Assembly: GCA_012178725.1 (NCBI GenBank)
Contig: GCA_012178725.1_3030.1
Source of the DNA: a phage
DNA: 64,000 nucleotides
Reading direction: 5' to 3' (one strand)
A program made the position numbers and the translations under genes. Positions 7,999 to 61,735 of this stretch are shown here, piece by piece (the first letter of the stretch is position 1; the number at the start of each line of letters is the position of its first letter). Under the pieces are notes generated by a model, which worked only from the letters and a program-made list of their open reading frames with translations, ran no database searches and was not told where the DNA came from.

Positions 7999-11139
<3,141 letters not shown>

Positions 11140-11167: not shown

Positions 11168-13147
11168 ATGACTTTATTATCTCCGGGCATTGAGCTCAAA
11201 GAAACTACGGTTCAAAGCACCGTGGTTAATAACTCTACTGGTACAGCAGCTTTGGCCGGTAAATTCCAGTGGGGTCCTGCTTTTCAGATTAAACAGGTTA
11301 CAAATGAAGTAGATTTAGTTAATACTTTTGGTCAACCAACCGCTGAAACTGCTGACTATTTTATGTCTGCGATGAATTTCTTGCAGTACGGAAATGACTT
11401 ACGAGTAGTTCGTGCTGTTGATAGAGATACCGCTAAAAACTCATCGCCAATTGCTGGTAATATTGAATACACAATTTCTACCCCAGGTAGTAACTACGCG
11501 GTTGGAGATAAAATCACGGTCAAATATGTTTCAGATGATATTGAAACTGAAGGTAAAATTACTGAAGTAGACGCAGATGGAAAAATTAAGAAAATTAATA
11601 TTCCTACTGCAAAAATTATCGCTAAAGCGAAAGAAGTTGGTGAATATCCAACACTAGGTTCTAACTGGACTGCGGAAATTTCTTCATCTTCTTCCGGTTT
11701 AGCTGCAGTAATAACTCTTGGAAAAATTATTACTGATTCCGGTATTTTATTAGCTGAAATTGAAAATGCTGAAGCTGCTATGACAGCGGTTGACTTTCAA
11801 GCAAATCTCGAAAAATACGGAATTCCAGGAGTAGTAGCTCTTTATCCAGGCGAATTAGGCGATAAAATTGAAATTGAAATCGTATCTAAAGCTGACTATG
11901 CAAAAGGAGCTTCTGCATTACTCCCAATTTATCCGGGCGGTGGTACTCGCGCATCTACTGCTAAAGCAGTGTTTGGATATGGACCACAAACTGATTCACA
12001 GTACGCTATTATAGTTCGTCGTAATGATGCTATTGTTCAAAGCGTTGTTCTTTCAACTAAGCGTGGTGAAAAAGATATTTACGATAGTAACATCTATATC
12101 GATGACTTTTTCGCAAAAGGTGGTTCAGAATATATTTTTGCAACTGCACAAAACTGGCCAGAAGGCTTCTCTGGAATTTTAACTCTGTCTGGTGGATTAT
12201 CATCAAATGCTGAAGTAACAGCAGGAGATTTGATGGAAGCTTGGGACTTCTTTGCTGACCGTGAATCCGTTGATGTTCAATTGTTTATTGCGGGTTCTTG
12301 TGCCGGTGAATCTTTAGAAACAGCATCTACTGTCCAAAAACACGTCGTTTCAATTGGGGATGCTCGCCAAGATTGCTTAGTATTGTGCTCTCCTCCGCGT
12401 GAAACTGTAGTTGGAATTCCTGTAACTCGTGCAGTAGATAATTTAGTTAACTGGAGAACTGCAGCAGGTTCATACACCGATAATAACTTTAATATCAGTT
12501 CAACCTATGCAGCAATCGACGGCAACTACAAATATCAGTATGACAAATATAATGATGTGAATCGTTGGGTTCCATTAGCAGCTGATATTGCTGGTTTATG
12601 CGCAAGAACTGATAACGTATCTCAGACTTGGATGTCTCCGGCTGGTTATAATCGTGGCCAGATTCTTAACGTTATTAAACTGGCTATTGAAACTCGCCAG
12701 GCTCAGCGCGACCGTTTATACCAAGAAGCTATCAACCCAGTAACTGGTACAGGTGGTGATGGTTACGTATTGTATGGTGATAAAACAGCTACTTCTGTTC
12801 CTTCTCCATTTGATCGTATTAACGTTCGTCGTCTGTTTAATATGTTGAAAACTAATATCGGACGTAGTTCAAAATATCGTTTGTTCGAATTAAACAATGC
12901 GTTTACTCGTTCATCATTCCGCACAGAAACTGCCCAGTACTTACAGGGAATTAAAGCTCTCGGTGGAATTTATGAATATCGTGTAGTTTGCGATACAACA
13001 AATAATACTCCGTCAGTAATTGATAGAAATGAGTTTGTTGCAACATTCTACATCCAACCGGCTCGTAGTATAAATTATATCCAACTTAATTTCGTCGCAA
13101 CTGCTACTGGTGCAGATTTTGATGAGTTAACTGGTCTTGCAGGTTAA
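11168..13147 (+). CDS. 18: Tail sheath protein gp18
   Basis: 659 aa; MTLLSPGIELKETTVQS N-terminus; size as in T4. Confidence 0.95.
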   Translation: MTLLSPGIELKETTVQSTVVNNSTGTAALAGKFQWGPAFQIKQVTNEVDLVNTFGQPTAETADYFMSAMNFLQYGNDLRVVRAVDRDTAKNSSPIAGNIEYTISTPGSNYAVGDKITVKYVSDDIETEGKITEVDADGKIKKINIPTAKIIAKAKEVGEYPTLGSNWTAEISSSSSGLAAVITLGKIITDSGILLAEIENAEAAMTAVDFQANLEKYGIPGVVALYPGELGDKIEIEIVSKADYAKGASALLPIYPGGGTRASTAKAVFGYGPQTDSQYAIIVRRNDAIVQSVVLSTKRGEKDIYDSNIYIDDFFAKGGSEYIFATAQNWPEGFSGILTLSGGLSSNAEVTAGDLMEAWDFFADRESVDVQLFIAGSCAGESLETASTVQKHVVSIGDARQDCLVLCSPPRETVVGIPVTRAVDNLVNWRTAAGSYTDNNFNISSTYAAIDGNYKYQYDKYNDVNRWVPLAADIAGLCARTDNVSQTWMSPAGYNRGQILNVIKLAIETRQAQRDRLYQEAINPVTGTGGDGYVLYGDKTATSVPSPFDRINVRRLFNMLKTNIGRSSKYRLFELNNAFTRSSFRTETAQYLQGIKALGGIYEYRVVCDTTNNTPSVIDRNEFVATFYIQPARSINYIQLNFVATATGADFDELTGLAG

Positions 13148-13154
13148 TTGATAA

Positions 13155-13168
13155 GGGGCTTCGGCCCC
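13155..13168 (+). terminator. Hairpin ggggc-ttcg-gcccc (UUCG tetraloop) just after gene 18
   Basis: Inverted repeat 8 nt past the gp18 stop. Confidence 0.5.
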
Positions 13169-13185
13169 TATTCTCGAGGAATCAA

Positions 13186-13791
13186 GTGATTATTTCTAAG
13201 TTTGTTACAATAAAACCAAGAAATCATTCAAAAATGTGGTCGACAATTCTGGGATATAAAGTATCATATCATGATACAGTATCTGTTCCAATAGAATTAA
13301 TGCCAAAGAATAGTAATAAAATAGTTGACGCTAAATGTGATTTGTGTGGTATTAAATTTAGTAGAAGCATTCAGCTTTTAAATAGAACACCCACGCATGC
13401 ATGTAGAAAATGTAGCATTAAACAAGTTGCTATTAAAAATTCGGAAGTTCAATCTGGAATAAGTAGACCATGGCAAAGAGGTGATAAACATCCTCGATGG
13501 ACTGGTAAAAGAAAAGAGTTTGCATTATATGCTAGTAGAGTTCATTCTATAACTAAGTCAGCTAAAATAAGAAAAATTTGGTCAAAATGGCCGAATGCTG
13601 ATAAAATAGGAGTGTGTGGCGTAGAAGGTGCTTACCAACTCGATCATAAAGTATCTATCAAATATGGATTTGATAATTTAATTCCGCCGGAAATTATAGC
13701 AAGCGTAAAAAATTTAGAAATAATCACTTGGGAATCTAACCGAGAAAAGTCAAAAAGAAATAGCGTAGATCTTTGGGATTTACTAGAATGA
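13186..13791 (+). CDS. Putative HNH-family (His-Me finger) homing endonuclease, free-standing; GTG start
   Basis: 201 aa ORF between genes 18 and 19; Cys pairs (CDLC, CRKC) plus LDHKVSIKYGFDNL...NLEIITWESNREK HNH-like motif; GAGGA Shine-Dalgarno 5 nt before the GTG. Confidence 0.65.
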   Translation: MIISKFVTIKPRNHSKMWSTILGYKVSYHDTVSVPIELMPKNSNKIVDAKCDLCGIKFSRSIQLLNRTPTHACRKCSIKQVAIKNSEVQSGISRPWQRGDKHPRWTGKRKEFALYASRVHSITKSAKIRKIWSKWPNADKIGVCGVEGAYQLDHKVSIKYGFDNLIPPEIIASVKNLEIITWESNREKSKRNSVDLWDLLE

Positions 13792-13798
13792 TTCTAAA

Positions 13799-13816
13799 GG
13801 CCTGTTTCGGCAGGCC
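13799..13816 (+). other. Hairpin ggcctg-tttcgg-caggcc immediately after the HNH ORF
   Basis: Inverted repeat read directly. Confidence 0.45.
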
Positions 13817-13817
13817 A

Positions 13818-13825
13818 TATAAATA
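13818..13825 (+). promoter_or_regulatory. Late promoter core TATAAATA (first of two upstream of gene 19)
   Basis: Exact motif. Confidence 0.5.
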
Positions 13826-13876
13826 CACTATATCCTTAATTCTTTAATTCTATATGCCCTAGGTTAAACATAGGGA

Positions 13877-13884
13877 TATAAATA
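13877..13884 (+). promoter_or_regulatory. Late promoter core TATAAATA (second, proximal to gene 19)
   Basis: Exact motif about 15 nt upstream of the gp19 ATG. Confidence 0.6.
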
Positions 13885-13898
13885 CTACAGAGGCTAAT

Positions 13899-14390
13899 AT
13901 GTTTGTAGATGATGTAACACGAGCGTTTGAATCTGGTGATTTTGCTCGACCTAACTTATTCCAAGTAGAAATTTCTTATCTTGGACAAAATTTTACGTTT
14001 CAATGTAAAGCCACTGCTTTACCAGCTGGTATTGTAGAAAAAATTCCAGTCGGATTTATGAACCGTAAAATTAACGTAGCAGGCGATCGTACATTCGATG
14101 ACTGGACTGTTACAGTAATGAACGATGAAGCTCATGATGCTCGCCAGAAGTTCGTTGATTGGCAAAGCATTGCTGCAGGACAAGGAAACGAAATTACTGG
14201 TGGAAAACCTGCAGAGTATAAAAAGAGCGCTATCGTTCGTCAATATGCTCGTGACGCTAAAACAGTAACAAAAGAAATTGAAATTAAAGGTCTGTGGCCT
14301 ACTAACGTGGGTGAACTTCAATTGGATTGGGATTCAAACAATGAAATCCAAACATTTGAAGTAACTCTTGCTCTCGATTATTGGGAATAA
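13899..14390 (+). CDS. 19: Tail tube protein gp19
   Basis: 163 aa; position and size as in T4. Confidence 0.95.
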   Translation: MFVDDVTRAFESGDFARPNLFQVEISYLGQNFTFQCKATALPAGIVEKIPVGFMNRKINVAGDRTFDDWTVTVMNDEAHDARQKFVDWQSIAAGQGNEITGGKPAEYKKSAIVRQYARDAKTVTKEIEIKGLWPTNVGELQLDWDSNNEIQTFEVTLALDYWE

Positions 14391-14422: not shown

Positions 14423-16047
<1,625 letters not shown>

Positions 16048-16048
<1 letters not shown>

Positions 16049-16296
16049 TGGAAGGTTTAATTGAAGCTATTAAATCAAACGACCTCGTAGCCGCTCGTAA
16101 ATTATTTGCTGAAGCCATGGCTGCAAGAACGATTGATTTAATTAAAGAAGAAAAAATCGCTATCGCTCGTAATTTCTTAATCGAAGGTGAAGAACCTGAT
16201 GACGAGGATGATGACGAAGACGAAGATAGTGATGATAAAGACGACAAAAAAGACAAAGATTCTGATGAAGATGACGAAGACGAGGATGATGAATAA
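16048..16296 (+). CDS. 67: Prohead core protein gp67, acidic C-terminal tail
   Basis: 82 aa; Asp/Glu-rich tail; position between 20 and 68. Confidence 0.85.
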
Positions 16297-16721
16297 TGCT
16301 TCTGATCCCTGAAACTCATGAATTAGTTCTCGAGAATGTCGAAGCACTTATTCCTGAAGCACAGGGTCGCTTTGACGAATTGTCTTCTGCTTTAAATAAA
16401 GACGATATAAATACAATTGTCGAGAATATGCTTGATGATGAAACTGATTTAGCGGTTGCATTAGCTTCTATTAATGAAAATATGCCGCTAAATGAATTTA
16501 TCGTTAAACATGTTTCCGCCCGTGGTGAAATTACTCGCACTAAAGACCGCAAAACGCGTGAACGTAATGCATTTCAAACCACTGGGTTGTCTAAAGCAAA
16601 ACGTAGACAAATTGCTCGTAAAGCTACCAAAACGAAGATTGCCAATCCAGCAGGTCAATCTCGTGCTCAGCGTAAGCGTAAAAAAGCTCTTAAACGCCGT
16701 AAAGCATTAGGATTAAGCTAA
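16296..16721 (+). CDS. 68: Prohead core protein gp68
   Basis: 141 aa; position. Confidence 0.85.
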
Positions 16722-19783: not shown

Positions 19784-19798
19784 TCTTTGACGATTTAA

Positions 19799-19814
19799 GG
19801 GACCTTCGGGTCCC
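19799..19814 (+). terminator. Hairpin gggacc-ttcg-ggtccc followed by a T-rich tract, after gene 23
   Basis: Inverted repeat plus tttagttgttttt. Confidence 0.6.
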
Positions 19815-19831
19815 TTTAGTTGTTTTTATGG

Positions 19832-19839
19832 TATAAATA
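19832..19839 (+). promoter_or_regulatory. Late promoter core TATAAATA upstream of gene 24
   Basis: Exact motif. Confidence 0.6.
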
Positions 19840-19866
19840 AATCATATAAACCAAAAGGAAAGCGCA

Positions 19867-24894: not shown

Positions 24895-24922
24895 AGATAT
24901 ATTTATTACATGGTATTTAGAC

Positions 24923-26434
24923 ATGACTGACATTAAAGTACATTTTTATGATTTTAGTCACGTGAGAATTGATTGTGAAGAAAGTACATTTCATGAACTC
25001 CGTGATTTCTTTAGCTTTGAAGCTGATGGGTATCGTTTTAATCCGAAATACAAATATGGCCACTGGGATGGACGAATCCGTCTTTTAGATTATAATCGTC
25101 TTCTTCCATTCGGCTTAGTCGGGCAAATTAAAAAGTTCTGTGATAACTTTGGCTATAAAGCCTGGATTGACCCGCAAATTAATGAAAAAGAAGAATTATC
25201 AAGAAAAGATTTTGATGAATGGCTTTCTAAATTAGAAATCTATTCAGGAAATAAAAGAATTGAACCGCACTGGTATCAAAAAGATGCAGTGTTCGAAGGA
25301 TTAGTTAATCGTCGTAGAATTCTTAATCTTCCAACATCCGCTGGTAAATCGTTAATTCAAGCTTTGCTTGCGCGATATTATTTGGAAAATTATGAAGGTA
25401 AAATTCTTATCATTGTTCCAACAACTGCCTTAACAACTCAGATGGCTGATGACTTCGTCGACTATCGTCTATTCAGTCATGCAATGATAAAGAAAATTGG
25501 TGGCGGAGCATCAAAAGATGATAAATATAAAAATGATGCACCAGTCGTTGTTGGTACATGGCAAACTGTAGTTAAACAACCGAAAGAATGGTTCTCACAG
25601 TTTGGAATGATGATGAATGATGAATGTCATCTTGCTACAGGAAAAAGTATTTCATCCATCATATCAGGTTTAAATAACTGCATGTTTAAATTTGGTCTAT
25701 CTGGTTCATTACGTGATGGCAAAGCCAATATCATGCAGTATGTTGGAATGTTTGGTGAAATATTTAAACCAGTAACGACTTCTAAATTAATGGAAGATGG
25801 ACAAGTAACTGAGCTAAAAATTAATAGTATTTTTCTTCGCTATCCCGATGAGTTCACTACTAAATTAAAGGGAAAAACTTATCAAGAAGAAATAAAAATT
25901 ATTACTGGGCTTAGTAAAAGAAATAAATGGATCGCTAAATTAGCTATTAAGCTTGCGCAAAAAGATGAAAACGCTTTTGTCATGTTTAAACATGTATCAC
26001 ATGGTAAAGCTATTTTCGATTTAATTAAAAATGAATACGATAAAGTTTATTACGTATCAGGGGAAGTTGATACCGAAACCCGCAATATAATGAAAACCTT
26101 AGCTGAAAATGGTAAAGGAATAATTATAGTAGCTAGTTATGGTGTATTTTCTACTGGTATTTCAGTTAAAAATCTGCATCACGTTGTTTTAGCGCACGGT
26201 GTTAAATCAAAAATCATTGTATTACAAACAATCGGTCGTGTATTACGTAAGCATGGTTCTAAGACAATAGCAACTGTCTGGGACCTCATAGATGATTGTG
26301 GTGTTAAGCCAAAATCTGCTAATACGAAAAAGAAATATGTTCATTTGAACTATCTTTTAAAACACGGCATTGATCGTATTCAGCGCTACGCAGATGAAAA
26401 ATTTAATTACGTAATGAAAACAGTTAATTTATAA
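24923..26434 (+). CDS. uvsW: UvsW helicase (SF2 recombination/repair helicase)
   Basis: 503 aa; Walker A PTSAGKS and DEAH-like NDECH. Confidence 0.95.
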   Translation: MTDIKVHFYDFSHVRIDCEESTFHELRDFFSFEADGYRFNPKYKYGHWDGRIRLLDYNRLLPFGLVGQIKKFCDNFGYKAWIDPQINEKEELSRKDFDEWLSKLEIYSGNKRIEPHWYQKDAVFEGLVNRRRILNLPTSAGKSLIQALLARYYLENYEGKILIIVPTTALTTQMADDFVDYRLFSHAMIKKIGGGASKDDKYKNDAPVVVGTWQTVVKQPKEWFSQFGMMMNDECHLATGKSISSIISGLNNCMFKFGLSGSLRDGKANIMQYVGMFGEIFKPVTTSKLMEDGQVTELKINSIFLRYPDEFTTKLKGKTYQEEIKIITGLSKRNKWIAKLAIKLAQKDENAFVMFKHVSHGKAIFDLIKNEYDKVYYVSGEVDTETRNIMKTLAENGKGIIIVASYGVFSTGISVKNLHHVVLAHGVKSKIIVLQTIGRVLRKHGSKTIATVWDLIDDCGVKPKSANTKKKYVHLNYLLKHGIDRIQRYADEKFNYVMKTVNL

Positions 26435-35404: not shown

Positions 35405-35440
35405 GACTACTATAACACAACATAAGGGACTTGTAAACTA
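35405..35440 (-). promoter_or_regulatory. Early promoter GTTTAC-N18-TGtTATAGT (T4 early class)
   Basis: -35 GTTTAC at 35433-35438 and extended -10 at 35409-35417 on the minus strand. Confidence 0.6.
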
Positions 35441-37495
35441 CATTTTGAACTTTTTAGACATTCCGTTGATGTTAACCAAAGAAGCCAAGATTTGAGAAAC
35501 TTCGTTTTCCTCTTCTTTTGATTCTTCTACAAGAAATTGATTAAATCCAGCCATTGGACGAACTTCACCAGTTTCCATTAAATGGTCGCCATCATATACC
35601 GATTCCTCTAATTGTTCAGAAGGAGGAACGATTGTACCTTCGATTAGATACTTGTTATAAGCAGTTTCTTTCATAAAGTACGTACTTACTTTATTAATCT
35701 TCAGTAAAATTCCACGCGGTAGAATAACTTCAGCTTCTGATGGAAATCCTGATAAATGACCTGGAACGATAACTTTGATTCGCTCAGCTCCTTTAATTAC
35801 CATACCCACGCTAGTTTCAGCATCTTCATTAGCATATGTAGAATGACTACCCATATGCATCAAATCTTCTGCGTCAACTGAACCTTCTCCTTCACCAGAA
35901 AATACTGCGCCGGAATCATCTAGAGCCATATAGTTTTTACCATGCTCACCGAAGATATTTGGTTTAAGAGATGTGGATACGAAGTTCTTGAAATAGAACA
36001 TTTTGTTTTCAATGTTATGACGCAAAGTTTTAAAGGTAACTTCTTGTCCGCGATAAAGCGTAGTTCCTGGAGGAAGAACTGAACCTTTAGCGAATGCAGA
36101 ATCCAACGTCTCGATGTGCTTAATAGCTCGTTCCATATATTCTTCACGGGTAGAATCTGGTTTACCCAAAAGGAACGAGTTCATTTCAACATATGAATCT
36201 GCACAATAATCTTCAATTACATCAGATTCGGCCTGAGTCAGTCCTTTTGGAGTTACTTCAGTGCTTGCGTATTCATATGCCTGGGCAGCAGATTCATTAA
36301 TCAATTTATAAATGCCATTCATGACAAATTGAATAATAGCTGTCTTTTCATCTGGCGTAGCTTTAGAACCTTTAACTAAATCATTAATAATTTTCTTAAT
36401 AACATCAAAGCTATTAGAAATATTAATGTCAGCAAGATCGCTTAAAATTTTATCAGTTTTATAATCAAAGAATTCTTTATTCTTTAAATATTCTTGAGAA
36501 CCTTGATATGTTATATCGCTCTGCAACTTGATAGATGGATCACGTAAACGTGCGTGGGCCAATGCAATATGATTTCGGAAGTTTTCTAGTTCATAATCGC
36601 TAGATTTAAAACGAGAAGCACTTCTCATACCACCGATAGCTCCTTTGCTGAAGTTTGAACCAATCTGGATAACGCCAGAGTTCATCGGACCTTCTGCTTT
36701 ATATACCGGAACTTTAGATTCAAACTCTTGATATTTCTTTGCAGCGAAGCTATCACCCTGAAGTGAAGCATCGACAGTAGAATATTGAGCTTGTGCTGCT
36801 AATCGACGACTAATTTTAGTTTTTTGAATAACAGCTTGATCCGTGCGCTTATCATTTTCTAAAGCAATAGAAGCAGCAACAGCGACAGCTTTAGGAACAG
36901 CATTACCTGTTTTAACATCTACATAAACATCACCGACCTTTGATTCAACTTTTGTGAATAACTCAGTTGAAATAGGAGGTACACCTGGAATGTCTTCTAA
37001 ATTGGCATTTTTACGGTAAACCATAATATATGCATATTTCTTATCATAGTCCCAGATTTCCTTTAAAAGAACATATCGACCTGCTCCTTTAGTACGTACT
37101 AAACGGTCAGCAATAACTTGCATTTGACGAGCAGCGCCATTTGTTTTACTCTTTAGTACACGGAATAAGCACGCGTCAATTTTATACTGCTTCATTGTTT
37201 GAAGAGCAGTATCAAAAACAGCATTAATGACGCCAATTGGATTTCCACCCAAGTTTCTAAGCTTAACCAGTGATAATTTCTCGTTGACACCTATCATTAC
37301 GATATGCATCATTTTATCGCCTGGCTTAACGTTTTTATTTGTATCACCACCAGAGGTGTATGTACAAAATCTAAATCCAGGAAGCACGCTTTCTTCGCCG
37401 GCTTGAATAGCAAAAATTTGTGGTATTTTATGCTTAGGATTTAAGTTAACAACCGGCGCCGAAGCGCCGTCAAATAATTCTGTAATAAGTTCCAT
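35438..37495 (-). CDS. Alt-like ADP-ribosyltransferase paralog (distal copy)
   Basis: 685 aa; MELITELFD N-terminus; conserved YRGQ and FYFKNFVSTSL ART-like motifs; C-terminal VYDGDHLMETGE shared with the adjacent Alt. Confidence 0.85.
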   Translation of the reverse strand: MELITELFDGASAPVVNLNPKHKIPQIFAIQAGEESVLPGFRFCTYTSGGDTNKNVKPGDKMMHIVMIGVNEKLSLVKLRNLGGNPIGVINAVFDTALQTMKQYKIDACLFRVLKSKTNGAARQMQVIADRLVRTKGAGRYVLLKEIWDYDKKYAYIMVYRKNANLEDIPGVPPISTELFTKVESKVGDVYVDVKTGNAVPKAVAVAASIALENDKRTDQAVIQKTKISRRLAAQAQYSTVDASLQGDSFAAKKYQEFESKVPVYKAEGPMNSGVIQIGSNFSKGAIGGMRSASRFKSSDYELENFRNHIALAHARLRDPSIKLQSDITYQGSQEYLKNKEFFDYKTDKILSDLADINISNSFDVIKKIINDLVKGSKATPDEKTAIIQFVMNGIYKLINESAAQAYEYASTEVTPKGLTQAESDVIEDYCADSYVEMNSFLLGKPDSTREEYMERAIKHIETLDSAFAKGSVLPPGTTLYRGQEVTFKTLRHNIENKMFYFKNFVSTSLKPNIFGEHGKNYMALDDSGAVFSGEGEGSVDAEDLMHMGSHSTYANEDAETSVGMVIKGAERIKVIVPGHLSGFPSEAEVILPRGILLKINKVSTYFMKETAYNKYLIEGTIVPPSEQLEESVYDGDHLMETGEVRPMAGFNQFLVEESKEEENEVSQILASLVNINGMSKKFKM

Positions 37496-47120: not shown

Positions 47121-47353
47121 AGTACGCCATACACCCTTTGTGCTTCAACTAATCCATCGAAATCCAGTTTAAGATGCGATATTTGATCGCCATCACCTGG
47201 ATTCACAATTACTAATACTGAACGAGGAGTTTCGGTAATAACACGAACCGATGTTTCAGGAAATCGTTCAGAAACCCTATTTACTAATTCCTGCGCAAAT
47301 AGTTTAACTTTTTCTTGGAATTCTTTAACAGTAATTGGTTTTTCACTTAGCAT
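47117..47353 (-). CDS. Hypothetical protein (cd.2 position)
   Basis: 78 aa. Confidence 0.55.
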   Translation of the reverse strand: MLSEKPITVKEFQEKVKLFAQELVNRVSERFPETSVRVITETPRSVLVIVNPGDGDQISHLKLDFDGLVEAQRVYGVL

Positions 47354-47874
47354 GTTGATCCCAGCTCCTTACTTTCAACGTTTTTAACTAATTTGACAGA
47401 AACTAATTCAGCATCTTGAGTAATCATTACCGGACCTTCTTCATACTCTTCAAGATATTCTAGAGCTTTCTTTTTAGCTTCTTCTTTCGTATCAGTTTGA
47501 GCATAGATATAAAACATACAACCAGTAATACCTACTACTTTCCACTTAATTTCTTTATCAGCTTTAATTTCAAATTTACTGACAGAATCATCTTTTTGAA
47601 CTTCTTCGAAAAAAGAATATTCTAACATATAAGCAATTGAAAATAACGGGCTAACTTTATAGGATTCGCCCATTACGTCAACAGCTTTATACCAGCAGTC
47701 ATCAATTTCGCGTTTAATGCTAATAACATTCTTTGCAGGGTCAATTTTTACTTTAAATGAATTTTCCCCAATAAACTGGGCAATTCGTTTATTAGCCCCG
47801 CAAGTTTCATTAAAAATATCTTTATATCCAGCTTTAAAGCGATAAACCTTATCTTCTTCAAACCATTCGCTCAT
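47347..47874 (-). CDS. Hypothetical protein (cd.3 position)
   Basis: 175 aa; own early promoter. Confidence 0.6.
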   Translation of the reverse strand: MSEWFEEDKVYRFKAGYKDIFNETCGANKRIAQFIGENSFKVKIDPAKNVISIKREIDDCWYKAVDVMGESYKVSPLFSIAYMLEYSFFEEVQKDDSVSKFEIKADKEIKWKVVGITGCMFYIYAQTDTKEEAKKKALEYLEEYEEGPVMITQDAELVSVKLVKNVESKELGSTC

Positions 47875-48605: not shown

Positions 48606-49826
<1,221 letters not shown>

Positions 49827-49830
<4 letters not shown>

Positions 49831-52876: not shown

Positions 52877-54046
52877 TTAAAAGTATTTTTTAAAACTCAT
52901 CATAACTTTATCATCAACATCATTATCAATCTGTGCAACAAGGTAAGATGACAGTTCTACTTCTTGTGGCGCGGATTGAACATTATCAGAATTAAGGTAT
53001 TCACGAATCCAAGGATATGGATGTTTAACCGGAGCATCGGTAATTGGGCATGGAAGATCGCACTGTTTCATACGAGATACAGTTAAGTAATCAATAAAGC
53101 TCCACATGCTATTTGTATTTAATCCAGGAACATCACCATCTTTAAATAAATGAACTGCCCAATCTTTTTCTTGGCGGTTAACTTCCATGAAAATATCAAC
53201 TGCTTCTTGTTCACACTCTTGGGCGATTTTAACCCATTCATCACCATCAGTGCCAAGCTGAAGTTGACGAATAATATATTGGGTGCCTTTAAGGTGAAGC
53301 TGCTCATCACGTGCAATGAACTTCATAATCTTGGCATTACCTTCCATGATTTCCATGTTCTTATGGAAGTTAAAGGTACACGCGAAAGATACATAAAAAC
53401 GAATAGCTTCTAAGGCATTAATAACGTGCAAACAGAGGTAAAGAGACTTCATTAAAGCACGTTTAGTACATGCAACAACTTTGCCTAACTCTTCTTTACG
53501 AAATCCTTCTGATAAAATTCCTTCATATTCTTCTTTAGCATTTTCCCATTCACGGGTTTTAATTAGAACGTCATCATAATAGCGACCGATAGATTCAGCG
53601 CGTTTCATAATAGCTTCATCTAATACAATCTCATCAAATACCTTCGATGGATCAGTATAAAGATTTCGCATGATATGTGTATATGAACGACTGTGAATAG
53701 TTTCACTAAAAGTCCATGTAGCAACCCATGTATCAAGACTTGGGTCTGAAATTAATGACATAAGTACAGCAGATGGCGCACGACCTTGAATGCTATCCAA
53801 AAGTGATTGATACTTCAGGTTATTAGTAAAAATATTTTGCTGATACTGAGGAAGCTTATTAAACTGCGCAGAATCCATCATTAAGTTTACTTCTTCAGGC
53901 CGCCAGAAAAATGACAATTGCTTTTCGGTCAAATCTTCAAAAACTTTATGGCGTTGAATATCATAACGCGCAATACCAAGACCTGAACCAAAAAACATAG
54001 GTTCTTTTAAAACATCAACTGGATTTGTATTAAAAACTGTGCTCAT
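52877..54046 (-). CDS. nrdB: Ribonucleotide reductase small subunit (aerobic, class Ia), uninterrupted
   Basis: 389 aa continuous ORF; no intron. Confidence 0.97.
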   Translation of the reverse strand: MSTVFNTNPVDVLKEPMFFGSGLGIARYDIQRHKVFEDLTEKQLSFFWRPEEVNLMMDSAQFNKLPQYQQNIFTNNLKYQSLLDSIQGRAPSAVLMSLISDPSLDTWVATWTFSETIHSRSYTHIMRNLYTDPSKVFDEIVLDEAIMKRAESIGRYYDDVLIKTREWENAKEEYEGILSEGFRKEELGKVVACTKRALMKSLYLCLHVINALEAIRFYVSFACTFNFHKNMEIMEGNAKIMKFIARDEQLHLKGTQYIIRQLQLGTDGDEWVKIAQECEQEAVDIFMEVNRQEKDWAVHLFKDGDVPGLNTNSMWSFIDYLTVSRMKQCDLPCPITDAPVKHPYPWIREYLNSDNVQSAPQEVELSSYLVAQIDNDVDDKVMMSFKKYF

Positions 54047-54099
54047 AAATTTTCCACTTAGTTAATAGATAGTGACTCGTCCCCATGAGTCAAATTATA

Positions 54100-56364
54100 T
54101 CATAATTTACAGGATGAACAATCTTCAGCTTTTGGAGTTTCTATTTCATAATCATCAGTACCAGAACCATCTCGGGTATTATGATAATAGAAATTTTTTC
54201 CACCAAAGTACCAAAAATACAAAAGGTCATCAATCATTATTGACATTGGAACCTTTCCTTTTGGAAAAATCTGCGGGTCATAATATGTATTTGCTGAAGC
54301 TGATTGACATACCCATTTAAGCATAATAGCTACTTGCGTAAGATAAGGTTTATTACCTTTCTTAGCTAATTTCCATGTATAATCATAGAGGTCTATGTTA
54401 TGCTCAATATTGGGCACGACCTGATTAAAGGAGCCCTCTTTTGATTCTTTAACAGAGACTGGTCCACGTGGAGGCTCGATACCGTTTGTACTGTTAGATA
54501 CCTGACTGGACGATTCACAAGGCATCAACGCGGATAAAGTAGAATTTCTAATTCCATGCTGTTTGAGTTCAGATCGAAGTTCGTCCCAATCACACACGTA
54601 GTTGGGCGCAGCGATTTGGTCAATCTTTTTATTGTACCAGTCGATAGGTAATTCGCCTCGAGACCAACGAGTGTCTGAATAATATTCGCAAGGTCCTTTT
54701 TCTTTGGCGAGCTTAATGGATGCTTTAATGAGTCCATACTGTAATCTCTCAAATAGTTCATGTGTTAAATCGTTAGCATCTTCATAAGAAGCAAAGTTAC
54801 TTGCCAGCCAAGCTGCATAGTTGGTAACACCTACGCCAAGGTTACGACGCTTTTTAGCTTTTTCTGCTTCAGGAACTGGATATCCTTGGTAATCCAACAG
54901 ATTATCAAGAGCACGAACTTGAACTTCTGCCAATTCATTAATTTTATCTTGGTCTTGCCAGTCAAAATTATCTAATACGAATGCAGAGAGAGTACACAAT
55001 CCAATTTCAGCATCAGGACTATTCACATCATTTGTTGGAATAGCAATTTCACAGCACAAGTTACTCTGACGAATAGGTGCCTTTTCACGAATAAACGGAG
55101 TATAGTTATTCGTATTATCAATGAACTGTACATAAATCCTTGCTGTTCCTGAACGTTCAGTCATGAGCAATTCAAATAGTTCACGGGCTTTAATACGCTT
55201 TTTACGAATATTAGGGTCTTTTTCTGCTGCTTCGTATAATTCACGGAAACGGTCTTGGTCTTTAAAATAAGAATAATAAAGCTCTCCACCCATTTCATGC
55301 GGACTGAACAAAGTAATGTAATCGTTCTTTCCGAATCGTTCCATCATCAAATCATTCAGCTGAACACCATAATCCATATGACGAATTCGGTTTTCTTCTA
55401 CGCCTTTGTTATTTTTCAAAACGAGAAGATTTTCAACTTCCAAATGCCAAATAGGATAATAAGCAGTAGCAGCGCCGCCACGAATTCCACCCTGTGAACA
55501 TGATTTAACTGCAGTCTGAAAATGTTTCCAAAAAGGAATAACACCAGTATGGCGTACTTCACCCATGCCAATCTTAGAACCTTCGGCACGAATCATACCA
55601 ACGTTAATACCAATTCCAGCTCGTTTGGAAATATATTCAACAATTGAAGCAGAAGCCTTATTGATAGACTTCAGCGAATCACCTGCCTCAATAACAACAC
55701 ATGAACTAAATTGCCGAGTCGGAGTACGGCAACCAGCCATAATAGGAGTTGGCAATGAAATCTGTCGAGTAGATACTGCTTCATAAAAACGAATAACATG
55801 TTTTAATCTGTCAACAGGTTCATCTTGATGCAATGCCATTCCAATAGTCATAAATGCAAACTGCGGAGTTTCATAAATTTGACCAGTGGTTTTATCTTTA
55901 ACGAGATATTTTTCTTTTAATTGCATCGCCCCGGAATAAGTAAATTCCATATCCCGCTCGTGCTTAATTTTTGATTCTAAAAATGTAATTTCTTCTGCTG
56001 AATATTTTGACAACAATTCAGGGTCATATTTACCTTCATTTACGCAGTAAGAAATATGGTCAATAAATGAACGCGGTTCATATTGTCCGTAAACATGCTT
56101 ACGAAGAGCAAACATTAAACAGCGTGCAGCTACGTATTGATAATCAGGCTCTTCAACTGAAATAGAATTCGCAGCAGCCTTAATGACAATAGTCTGAATG
56201 TCATCAGTTGTCATTCCATCACGGAGATAAGATTTAATATTTTCATATAATTCATAAGGATCTACTGATGTTCCCTCAGCTGCCCAAGATAAAACTTTAA
56301 TAATTTTTTGTGGGTCAAAGCTCTGAGAAACACCACTACTTTTGATAACATTAATTAATTGCAT
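54100..56364 (-). CDS. nrdA: Ribonucleotide reductase large subunit (aerobic, class Ia)
   Basis: 754 aa; MQLINVIKSSGVSQSFDPQKIIKVLSWA (ATP-cone) ... CSSCKL tail. Confidence 0.97.
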   Translation of the reverse strand: MQLINVIKSSGVSQSFDPQKIIKVLSWAAEGTSVDPYELYENIKSYLRDGMTTDDIQTIVIKAAANSISVEEPDYQYVAARCLMFALRKHVYGQYEPRSFIDHISYCVNEGKYDPELLSKYSAEEITFLESKIKHERDMEFTYSGAMQLKEKYLVKDKTTGQIYETPQFAFMTIGMALHQDEPVDRLKHVIRFYEAVSTRQISLPTPIMAGCRTPTRQFSSCVVIEAGDSLKSINKASASIVEYISKRAGIGINVGMIRAEGSKIGMGEVRHTGVIPFWKHFQTAVKSCSQGGIRGGAATAYYPIWHLEVENLLVLKNNKGVEENRIRHMDYGVQLNDLMMERFGKNDYITLFSPHEMGGELYYSYFKDQDRFRELYEAAEKDPNIRKKRIKARELFELLMTERSGTARIYVQFIDNTNNYTPFIREKAPIRQSNLCCEIAIPTNDVNSPDAEIGLCTLSAFVLDNFDWQDQDKINELAEVQVRALDNLLDYQGYPVPEAEKAKKRRNLGVGVTNYAAWLASNFASYEDANDLTHELFERLQYGLIKASIKLAKEKGPCEYYSDTRWSRGELPIDWYNKKIDQIAAPNYVCDWDELRSELKQHGIRNSTLSALMPCESSSQVSNSTNGIEPPRGPVSVKESKEGSFNQVVPNIEHNIDLYDYTWKLAKKGNKPYLTQVAIMLKWVCQSASANTYYDPQIFPKGKVPMSIMIDDLLYFWYFGGKNFYYHNTRDGSGTDDYEIETPKAEDCSSCKL

Positions 56365-56920: not shown

Positions 56921-57780
56921 TTACACCGCCATCTTTCCTTTAATTGGCGGGTGAGATACATAGTCGTTAAGAACAAAATTATGCGGCTTTGCGAATTGAC
57001 TCAACCAAAATACCTGTGATTCTGTGTCCCATTCATCAAATTCATCTGGGAATTTTAATTGTAATTCGCATAAATCCATAGGTTCACGACGCAAAATTTC
57101 TTTACATTGTTCTACGTGATTCATATAGATATGAGTATTACCGCCAGAAAATATCAAATCTCCCGGAATAAGATTACATATCTTAGCTACAATATGAACT
57201 AACGCAGCATATGATGCAATATTAAATGGAAGACCGAGGAAAACATCTACTGATCGTTGATACCACTGAAGGTCAAGGTATCCATTACGAACATTAAATT
57301 GATAGAACATATGACAAGGTGGTAATGCCATCTGCTTGAGTTCAGTTGGATTCCATGCTGAAATAATTTGACGCCTATCATTTGGCAGTTTTTTAATACG
57401 ATCAATAACTTCTATAATTTGGTCTACACCACCAAAATCACGCCACTGTTTTCCATAAATTGGACCAAGTTCACCGCTATGGTATCCTAAATCTTTTGCT
57501 TGATTTTCGTAATTTTCATCCCAGACTGTTTTGCCTTGAATTAATGAATCATGTTGAATTAATCGCAAATCATTGACATTTGTGCTTCCTGATAAAAACC
57601 ATATTAGCTCAGCAATGCATGCATTCCAGGCGAGCTTTTTAGTTGTTACTGCAGGAAAACCTTTGGTTAAATCCCAACGCAATTTAGTACCGAACAAAGC
57701 AATTGTTCCTGTGCCCGTTCGGTCATCGGTTTCATAGCCATTTTCAAAAATGTCTTTAATTAAATCTTGGTATTGTTTCA

Positions 57781-57781: not shown

Positions 57782-58809
<1,028 letters not shown>

Positions 58810-58825
<16 letters not shown>

Positions 58826-59169
58826 TGAAAAGAGCTAGAAGCAAATCCGCTATCTTTAATCATTTTAACTAAAGTTACCATTCCTCTGTTAACTGCTTGT
58901 GCGATTTCATCAAAAACTTCATCACTATCACCATAAAGATCACTAAAAAGTTCTAACACGTTCTTCTGAACTTTTAATTTACAGCCAACAAATTCGCCTA
59001 CAGTAAATTCGTTTCCGCCAATTCCAGCGTAAAACGTAATTACACCAGTTAATGGTCTTTCACTAGAACATAGGTCGTGTGATAAATTAATATAAGCCGT
59101 CCCGGGTGCAGTTTTAAGTTGGCAACGAATACTTACTCGAGCAATTCCAGCTACACGAATGTCAGACAT
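58810..59169 (-). CDS. Hypothetical protein (frd.2 position)
   Basis: 119 aa. Confidence 0.6.
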
Positions 59170-61636: not shown

Positions 61637-61703
61637 TTTTATTTCCTTTTTAATTTAATTAACAGTTGGTGCTATGACGATGTATGACCTCATAGCTGGT
61701 CAG
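61637..61703 (-). promoter_or_regulatory. Gene 32 translational operator: H-type pseudoknot (61668-61703) plus unstructured A/U-rich leader (61637-61666) bound by gp32 for autoregulation
   Basis: Minus strand CTGACCAGCTATGAGGTCATACATCGTCATAGCACC then AACTGTTAATTAAATTAAAAAGGAAATAAAA-ATG. Confidence 0.8.
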
Positions 61704-61719
61704 TGAGATAATTATAATC

Positions 61720-61727
61720 TATTTATA
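61720..61727 (-). promoter_or_regulatory. Late promoter core TATAAATA upstream of the gene 32 operator
   Basis: Exact motif on the minus strand. Confidence 0.5.
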
Positions 61728-61735
61728 ATAAGCAA

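Follow-up and report, generated by a model that had tools for sequence, protein, structure and literature searches.

A putative homing endonuclease gene of a divergent HNH type between the tail sheath and tail tube genes of a Tequatrovirus phage

In phage T4, gene 18 (tail sheath) and gene 19 (tail tube) are adjacent, separated by a spacer of 116 bp. In the DNA of the T6-like phage analyzed here (64,000 nucleotides [nt] of contig GCA_012178725.1_3030.1; "the window" denotes this whole stretch), the same spacer measures 751 bp and holds an open reading frame (ORF) of 201 amino acids (aa) that is absent from T4. What is this gene, and how did it come to lie between two conserved, essential neighbors? 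An initial annotation, made from the sequence alone, read it as an HNH endonuclease-like gene and proposed that a free-standing homing endonuclease cassette had landed next to the gene 19 promoter, leaving a duplicated promoter region behind. Our analysis suggests that the cassette (13148..13790, + strand) probably carries the gene of a free-standing homing endonuclease, one of a divergent HNH (His-Me finger) type. The insertion relative to T4, its sporadic occurrence, its exact boundaries, and an HNH-type signature with the matching predicted fold all point to this identity, while the promoter scar that formed part of the original proposal had to be given up.

RESULTS AND DISCUSSION

The ORF belongs to a precisely bounded insertion

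Alignment of the 18-19 junction with T4 and other relatives, the check that had been proposed for the insertion, yielded exact boundaries. The cassette (643 bp, not in T4) stands in place of the 8 bp TACGGTGC of the empty site, and homology to T4 restarts at A13791, the final base of the ORF stop codon. The gene occurs in two sequence types, here called a and b, and the junctions were uniform within each class of phage in which they were read: three type-a carriers (the window phage, T6, and Ptacy1496), two type-b carriers (RB5 and ADUt), and five empty-site phages (T4, T2, SG1, BECP11, and SA20RB). One close relative has the empty-site spacer sequence with a single-base difference.

The cassette brings only its own hairpin, Shine-Dalgarno sequence, and ORF. 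The hairpin, GGGGC-UUCG-GCCCC (13155..13168, + strand), lies directly 3′ of the gene 18 stop codon, folds with a z score of −3.0, and was found in all type-a and type-b carriers examined. It is followed by the Shine-Dalgarno sequence GAGGA (13176..13180, + strand), five bases before the GTG, and by the ORF itself (13186..13791, + strand), which ends in TGA. The GTG is the first start codon past the preceding stop, and its use is backed by an MIISK N terminus that is conserved in homologues. The initial annotation had read this start correctly, and it had likewise placed the ORF correctly between the gene 18 hairpin and two TATAAATA late-promoter cores with hairpins of their own.

Between the gene 18 stop and the GTG, inspection of the sequence and a terminator scan revealed no TATAAATA, no sigma-70-like promoter, and no terminator-like site. 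The hairpin at 13155-13168 carries no U tract and is therefore not a strong intrinsic terminator. Because the gene has no promoter of its own and no terminator-like site before it, its expression would be late and low, through read-through from gene 18 and initiation at GTG. An Rfam scan of 13000-14000 gave no match. A larger fold can be drawn around the hairpin: UUGAU (13148-13152) is complementary to AUCAA (13181-13185), and pairing of the two would enclose the hairpin and the ribosome-binding site in one stem-loop, which might relate to the hairpin described for mobE that sequesters the ribosome-binding site. The pairing is perfect in the window and RB5 and has one mismatch in T6, ADUt, and Ptacy1496. 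A mobE-like role of the cassette hairpin in hiding the ribosome-binding site was considered but not adopted, since the extended pairing is weak and not conserved among the variants.

The gene is sporadic within the genus and recurs at the same junction elsewhere

Among ∼510 Tequatrovirus records, 70 carry type a and 48 carry type b at the same site, and the rest (∼390) are empty. The 1.7 kb around the cassette is 99.5% identical to Escherichia phage vB_Eco_CP and 98 to 99% identical to PP01, ECML-134, T6, and Yersinia phage PST; type-b carriers include RB3, RB5-RB10, HP3, pSs-1, HY03, and ADUt. The sheath/tube junction is also occupied in at least six other phage lineages sampled, with homologues of 33 to 66% identity lying directly 3′ of the sheath gene and 5′ of the tube gene in Dhakavirus UP19 and Bp7, Klebsiella phage Roth77, Gelderlandvirus STP4-a, Acinetobacter phage Mokit, and Sinorhizobium phage phiM7. 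A metagenomic contig, L020, has the gene at this junction as well, whereas its close relatives L019 and L021 are without it. In L020 the gene occupies a different point of a different spacer, 3′ of a late promoter and abutting gene 19. Because insertion point and spacer differ between genera, the invasions appear to be separate events, all of them between the same two genes. Spacers show no conservation from one genus to the next, so the feature that draws the element in probably lies in the conserved coding flanks.

Three records retrieved in this survey (Pseudomonas phage PsgM02F, Pseudomonas phage vB_PSGBLB0006, and Staphylococcus phage SAJK-IND) contain Tequatrovirus sequence ∼95 to 99% identical to the query regions and are probably mislabelled or contaminated.

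The gene itself is not new to the databases. It is the "ORF19.1" of phage T6, deposited in 1994: the T6 copy occupies the same place, differs from the window copy by 5 nt and 1 aa, and carries a GenBank note in which the GTG start was already proposed. The window protein is identical to AFO10689.1 of ECML-134 (ECML134_163). Protein lengths in public records vary (185, 201, and 212 aa), and nearly all records name the product "hypothetical" or "uncharacterized"; a few recent ones use HNH endonuclease, homing endonuclease, or type II restriction endonuclease as the name of the gene or of relatives. The records of RB5, RB6, RB7, RB9, and RB10 leave the type-b gene unannotated. In the literature library searched, no experimental paper on the gene was found. 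Two reviews from 2010, on the mobile elements and genomes of T4-type phages, both leave genes 18 and 19 unmentioned; one of them lists a single "other HNH" gene in T6, possibly but not necessarily the gene studied here. This is thus a gene that has been in sequence databases for 30 years, an uncharacterized member of a familiar kind of element.

The C-terminal domain has an HNH-like signature and predicted fold

The 201-aa protein divides into a Cys4 zinc-ribbon module (residues 1 to ∼90) and an HNH-like beta-beta-alpha domain (∼109 to 201). The paired cysteines reported by the initial annotation are present in the translation as C51/C54 and C73/C76, as is the motif LDHKVSIKYGFDNL...NLEIITWESNREK. 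A HMMER search of the whole library retrieved 6,612 clusters (50% identity) at E ≤ 1e-3, 1,755 of them at E ≤ 1e-10. In an alignment of 136 representatives, pairwise <50% identical, the invariant columns are exactly D153, H154, N176, and N185; D153 and H154 are also invariant in 42 close relatives, and an alignment of the C-terminal domain alone returned the same four residues plus K188. The local consensus is YQLDHxxSIKxGF ... NLQxxPWxENRxK, which we take to resemble the classical DHIxPxxxGG ... NLxxLCxxCNxxK pattern minus the zinc cysteines and with Asn at the last position.

An AlphaFold2 model (mean predicted local distance difference test score of 90) places these residues as such a motif would have them: a strand at 150-154 ends in the DH pair, a second strand (177-181) follows N176, and a helix (182-188) bears N185. 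The predicted topology is that of a beta-beta-alpha metal finger, in which the Asp-His pair would supply the general base and a metal ligand, N176 would be the structural Asn, and N185 would be a further metal ligand. In Foldseek searches against viral models, the matches were the protein's own family and proteins labelled HNH, homing, or "endonuclease-like" (E values from 1e-5 to 3e-3 overall and from 5e-5 to 3e-3 for those labelled HNH or homing).

Profile searches gave a different picture, and their outcome weighs against assignment to the HNH nucleases. The initial annotation had proposed a search against HNH profiles; when the protein and its 42 relatives were scanned one by one, no Pfam or NCBIfam HNH model matched any of them, the best result being HNH_4 at E = 0.078 for one member. 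Neither the protein nor the relatives scanned matched any nuclease or defence family in Pfam, NCBIfam, or PADLOC. Foldseek against the PDB found no significant nuclease match, and a profile search of PDB sequences returned zinc-finger noise only and no nuclease. Comparison by hhalign of the C-terminal profile with the GVE2 HNH protein, either singly or as a 35-member PF01844 family, gave no match; nor did comparison with T4 MobE (probability of 0.1%).

Other searches placed the protein among poorly annotated families. None of the 120 matches listed from the C-terminal profile bears a Pfam HNH label; among these same 120, a few carry NUMOD3 and one was named McrA by the Joint Genome Institute (JGI). 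The PHROG match is phrog_5104 (function unknown). The N-terminal 87 residues have a weak PHROG match annotated as homing endonuclease, and the weak N-terminal matches to "homing endonuclease" and "HNH endonuclease" PHROG families span the zinc ribbon, not the catalytic core. In the absence of a profile match, the HNH assignment is based on the invariant residues and the predicted structure. A match to a curated profile is one of the defining features of the superfamily, and the protein does not have it; by signature and predicted fold, we file the protein as HNH-like.

The N-terminal module is exchangeable and the protein is maintained

Types a and b share their first 10 residues and are nearly the same from residue ∼140 onward, whereas residues ∼11 to 140 of type b, zinc ribbon included, are replaced, with only ∼40% DNA identity to type a (type-b loci: RB5, L006 3001-3618; ADUt, L005 1455-2105). 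Relatives join the same C-terminal domain to NUMOD3 (PF07460), to arrays of several helix-turn-helix motifs, to DUF7487, or to other zinc ribbons. The N-terminal zinc ribbon thus looks like an exchangeable module with a putative role in DNA binding. Phage homing endonucleases have been described as having a beads-on-a-string design (PMC2988022), which the domain joining seen in these relatives fits.

Copies of type a differ by 5 to 11 nt, which alter just 1 to 2 aa, and 233 of 243 records matched by tblastn span ≥80% of the protein. From this pattern of substitution, the ORF is intact and under purifying selection. A protein so maintained, at full length and with mostly silent changes, weighs against a decaying relic.

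A recoded patch in gene 18 lies close to the insertion

Over gene 18 (11168-13147; 659 aa), the window differs from T4 at 66 of 1,980 positions, 14 of which fall within 33 nt near the 3′ end of the gene (13064..13096, + strand; codons R-S-I-N-Y-I-Q-L-N-F-V), 52 to 84 nt 5′ of the insert. This patch is the densest substitution cluster in the gene, and its density was reached in 0 of 20,000 permutations that respected codon position. Eleven of the changes are silent; the remaining three convert a Thr codon to Gln. The patch encodes part of PARSINYITLNFVAT, a protein motif conserved from T4 to KVP40-type phages.

The allele at the patch largely follows the presence of the gene. The T4 allele occurs in ∼200 records, and only one carrier lineage has it. 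The a allele was found in all type-a carriers sampled, the least similar one included, and b or other non-T4 alleles were found in 44 of 48 type-b carriers. A comparable difference, in a second genus, separates L020 from the gene-less L019 and L021: at the corresponding codons, 14 changes crowd into 33 nt, and Val takes the place of the threonine. Acinetobacter phage Mokit has Gln at the threonine position, as does the window phage. The Ile-Asn-Tyr codons read ATA AAT TAT in 6 of 8 carrier lineages, compared to 3 of 12 noncarriers.

The patch includes TATAAATT at 13069-13076. That it serves as a late promoter for the ORF was rejected as a general explanation, since four other carrier lineages read GATAAAT at this place.

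The patch has the appearance expected of a target made resistant to cleavage, and we consider it a candidate for one of two things, either the target and immunity site of the endonuclease or a co-conversion scar. On both readings alike, the gene would have been acquired by homologous recombination, as in homing. There is precedent in the T4 GIY-YIG endonucleases SegF and SegG, which cut a conserved neighbor gene away from their insertion point; repair then co-converts flanking markers, and at the site itself the allele of the carrier shows polymorphism (PMC2988022). A recoded patch in gene 18 at 52 to 84 nt from the insert fits this behavior. The likeness has its bounds: the GIY-YIG fold of SegF and SegG is unlike that predicted for the window protein, and the cleavage and marker exclusion shown by experiment for SegF and SegG are, for the window gene, a prediction.

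Several observations count against the patch as a clean marker of immunity. Three or four related type-b carriers (Ec_YwIITB1, Shigella phages sb1 and sb3, and perhaps sb2) have the T4 allele, and the empty-site phages T2, SG1, and SA20RB and the empty-site sequences L012 and L018 have carrier-type alleles. L020 also has silent recoding in codons 1 to 12 of gene 19, which fits a co-conversion scar no less than a target site. The gene 19 recoding in L020 looks more like donor DNA dragged in along with the gene.

A homing cycle for the cassette and its relation to known systems

If the cassette is a homing endonuclease gene, its cycle might run as follows. The gene would be transcribed late, by read-through from gene 18 past the hairpin that has no U tract, with no contribution from a cassette promoter, and translated weakly from GTG. 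In a mixed infection, the zinc-ribbon module would bind the genome of a gene-less phage in or near the conserved 3′ end of gene 18, and the HNH domain would nick or cut it. Recombination-dependent repair of the T4 type would then copy the cassette and some of its flank from the carrier. The carrier would escape cutting because its patch at 13064-13096 is silently recoded, or because the insert itself disrupts the site.

The closest parallels in lifestyle are MobE and MobA of T4, which are likewise free-standing and sporadic, lie in spacers between conserved genes, and combine an HNH-type nuclease with a separate DNA-binding part (Edgell, Gibb and Belfort 2010, PMC2988022). MobE matches the Pfam HNH model PF01844, whereas the window protein matches no HNH profile. 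The HNH domain of Mob proteins is N terminal (PMC2988022); that of the window protein is C terminal. With no sequence similarity, the opposite domain order, and no PF01844 match, the window protein is not a Mob relative.

Small HNH nucleases of solved structure differ from the window protein as well. Compared to the Gme HNH nicking endonuclease (4h9d) and the phage GVE2 HNH protein (5h0o), the window family is without paired cysteines in its nuclease core, ends the motif in Asn instead of His, and has a 22-residue spacer from DH to the first Asn. The GVE2 HNH protein ORF43, a PF01844 match that we took as the counterpart of 5h0o despite its 188 aa versus a 92-residue chain, has no sequence or profile similarity to it. 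Intron-encoded HNH nicking endonucleases of the I-HmuI type are similar in design, with an HNH core without zinc cysteines and a beads-on-a-string arrangement with NUMOD and helix-turn-helix modules; some relatives of the window protein likewise carry NUMOD3 or helix-turn-helix arrays. They differ in being intron encoded, while the window gene is free-standing, and in having the reverse domain order.

A wider proposal can be drawn from the family as a whole, which we offer tentatively and hold to be possible but somewhat short of an even chance. The C-terminal domain would define a large HNH-like nuclease clade missed by curated profiles, with a D-H...N...N signature and reversed domain order. 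One branch would have long tracked the sheath/tube junction, including in a Sinorhizobium phage outside the Straboviridae, and may have forced the silent recoding of the most conserved C-terminal motif in the sheath protein. It may also have forced the loss of a Thr that is otherwise invariant in three carrier lineages, to Gln in the window phage and in Mokit and to Val in L020.

Should the homing endonuclease be confirmed, an active free-standing endonuclease with a mapped target would be added to the T-even set, in widely used phages (T6, PP01, ECML-134, and numerous therapeutic isolates). Such a result would account both for a recurrent presence/absence difference and for the local concentration of silent changes that gene 18 shows among genomes 97 to 99% identical, and it would provide a function for PHROG 5104 and thousands of unannotated relatives. 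The current view of how such elements work would be left unchanged. The additional interest is modest and lies in a nuclease clade that is large and unannotated and in the gene 18 patch as a concrete candidate target site. For annotation, we suggest that the gene be named a putative HNH-type homing endonuclease, that its start be set at the GTG, and that the downstream late promoters be assigned to gene 19.

Alternative explanations for the gene

The same observations could describe an accessory gene that the phage retains for its own benefit. The product, a nuclease or a DNA-binding protein, might for example exclude or degrade competing phage DNA or regulate the region of the tail genes, and the gene would pass on mainly by vertical descent, with ordinary recombination shuffling it. 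We regard this as unlikely. Purifying selection on the protein is compatible with such a role, and the very long association with sheath and tube genes in distant genera could reflect a function tied to genes 18 and 19. Phages with carrier-type gene 18 alleles but no gene, and others with the T4 allele and the gene, also agree with this reading. However, ∼390 of ∼510 close relatives do without the gene, and the same 8-bp filler is present in all five empty sites read, which independent precise deletions would not recreate. Insertion points also vary between genera, pointing to repeated invasions, and no defence-system profile matched. The accessory and homing readings overlap in part, given that homing endonucleases also cause marker exclusion.

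We give still less credence to an inactive homing endonuclease gene, either a relic or a protein that only binds DNA, whose spread has ended. The lineage that combines the T4 patch allele with a type-b gene is what would be expected if that copy no longer cuts; a weak GTG start with no promoter is in keeping with the idea, and defunct endonuclease genes, such as I-TevIII, are annotated in T4. Nevertheless, almost every record has the ORF at full length, substitutions between copies are mostly silent, and the four predicted catalytic residues are invariant across the 136 divergent representatives, all of which count against this reading.

The two late promoters belong to gene 19

Two hairpin and late-promoter units separate the ORF from gene 19, both on the + strand, outside the cassette, and also present in T4. 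The first (13799..13825) consists of the hairpin GGCCTG...CAGGCC (13799-13816) and a TATAAATA core (13818-13825), and the second (13857..13884) consists of the hairpin CCCTA...TAGGG (13857-13875) and a TATAAATA core (13877-13884) located 15 bp 5′ of the gene 19 ATG. Starting at ATTCTAAAGG and reaching up to that ATG, a stretch of 108 bp that includes both hairpins and both cores is identical in T4, T2, SG1, BECP11, and SA20RB. Because all five are without the ORF, both promoters and both hairpins are older than the insertion. The units are not copies of each other and have little in common past the ATATAAATAC core. T4 thus has both promoters at this position and lacks the ORF. By this comparison, the two late promoters and their hairpins are the ordinary control region of gene 19 and have no role in the element. 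The model of the initial annotation, in which the cassette landed by the gene 19 promoter and one TATAAATA/hairpin unit belongs to the element, is accordingly refuted: it is right that two such cores with hairpins lie 3′ of the ORF, but both are found base for base in ORF-less phages, and the likeness between them ends at the promoter core.

Neighboring genes and other differences from T4

The region of the window around the cassette is the Tequatrovirus block for tail and head morphogenesis. Gene 17 (9304-11136) precedes gene 18, and gene 19 (13899-14390) is followed by gene 20 (portal), which starts at 14462. A 106-aa serine-rich ORF antisense to gene 20 (15999-16319, − strand) is almost certainly a by-product of the sense-strand codons. 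Two relatives show irregularities on this side of the junction. In Ptacy1496 (L002 3280-4706), gene 20 is annotated as two coding sequences, and the sequence departs from the window ∼800 nt past the gene 19 start (16 and then 39 mismatches per 50 nt), which may reflect an insertion or a replaced segment in gene 20. In Bp7 (L034 2469-3030), an ORF annotated "HNH endonuclease" lies directly 3′ of gene 19, where the portal gene would be expected; it has only a weak SegE GIY-YIG match and would be a second putative mobile gene, one spacer on.

The initial annotation had noted that none of the T4 seg and mob endonuclease genes is at its usual position in the window, and comparison with the T4 annotation bears this out. 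Of the six T4 mobile elements whose positions fall in the window (segD; segE; the nrdB intron with I-TevIII; nrdB.1 plus mobE; the td intron with I-TevI; segG), none is present. The six clean absences map to 19794-19855, 24909-24929, 53379-53380, 54046-54104, 57232-57233, and 61699-61735. The gene between 18 and 19 is the only putative homing endonuclease recognized in the window.

Other sequence in the window is also without a counterpart in T4. A stretch of ∼1.7 kb not in T4 holds a 685-aa ORF (35438-37495, − strand) with an ADP-ribosyltransferase domain (PF03496). At the DNA level this ORF is 68% identical to a portion of T4 alt, and it resembles a second alt paralogue, complete in length, at a place where only the remnants alt.-1 and alt.-2 are found in T4. 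Further small insertions relative to T4 lie at 47347-47874, 49510-49830, and 58568-59169 (all − strand). Their products include a 175-aa ORF and a 106-aa ORF, neither with a Pfam match, and the third insertion, between frd and frd.1, encodes a 119-aa DUF7247 protein beside an 85-aa ORF.

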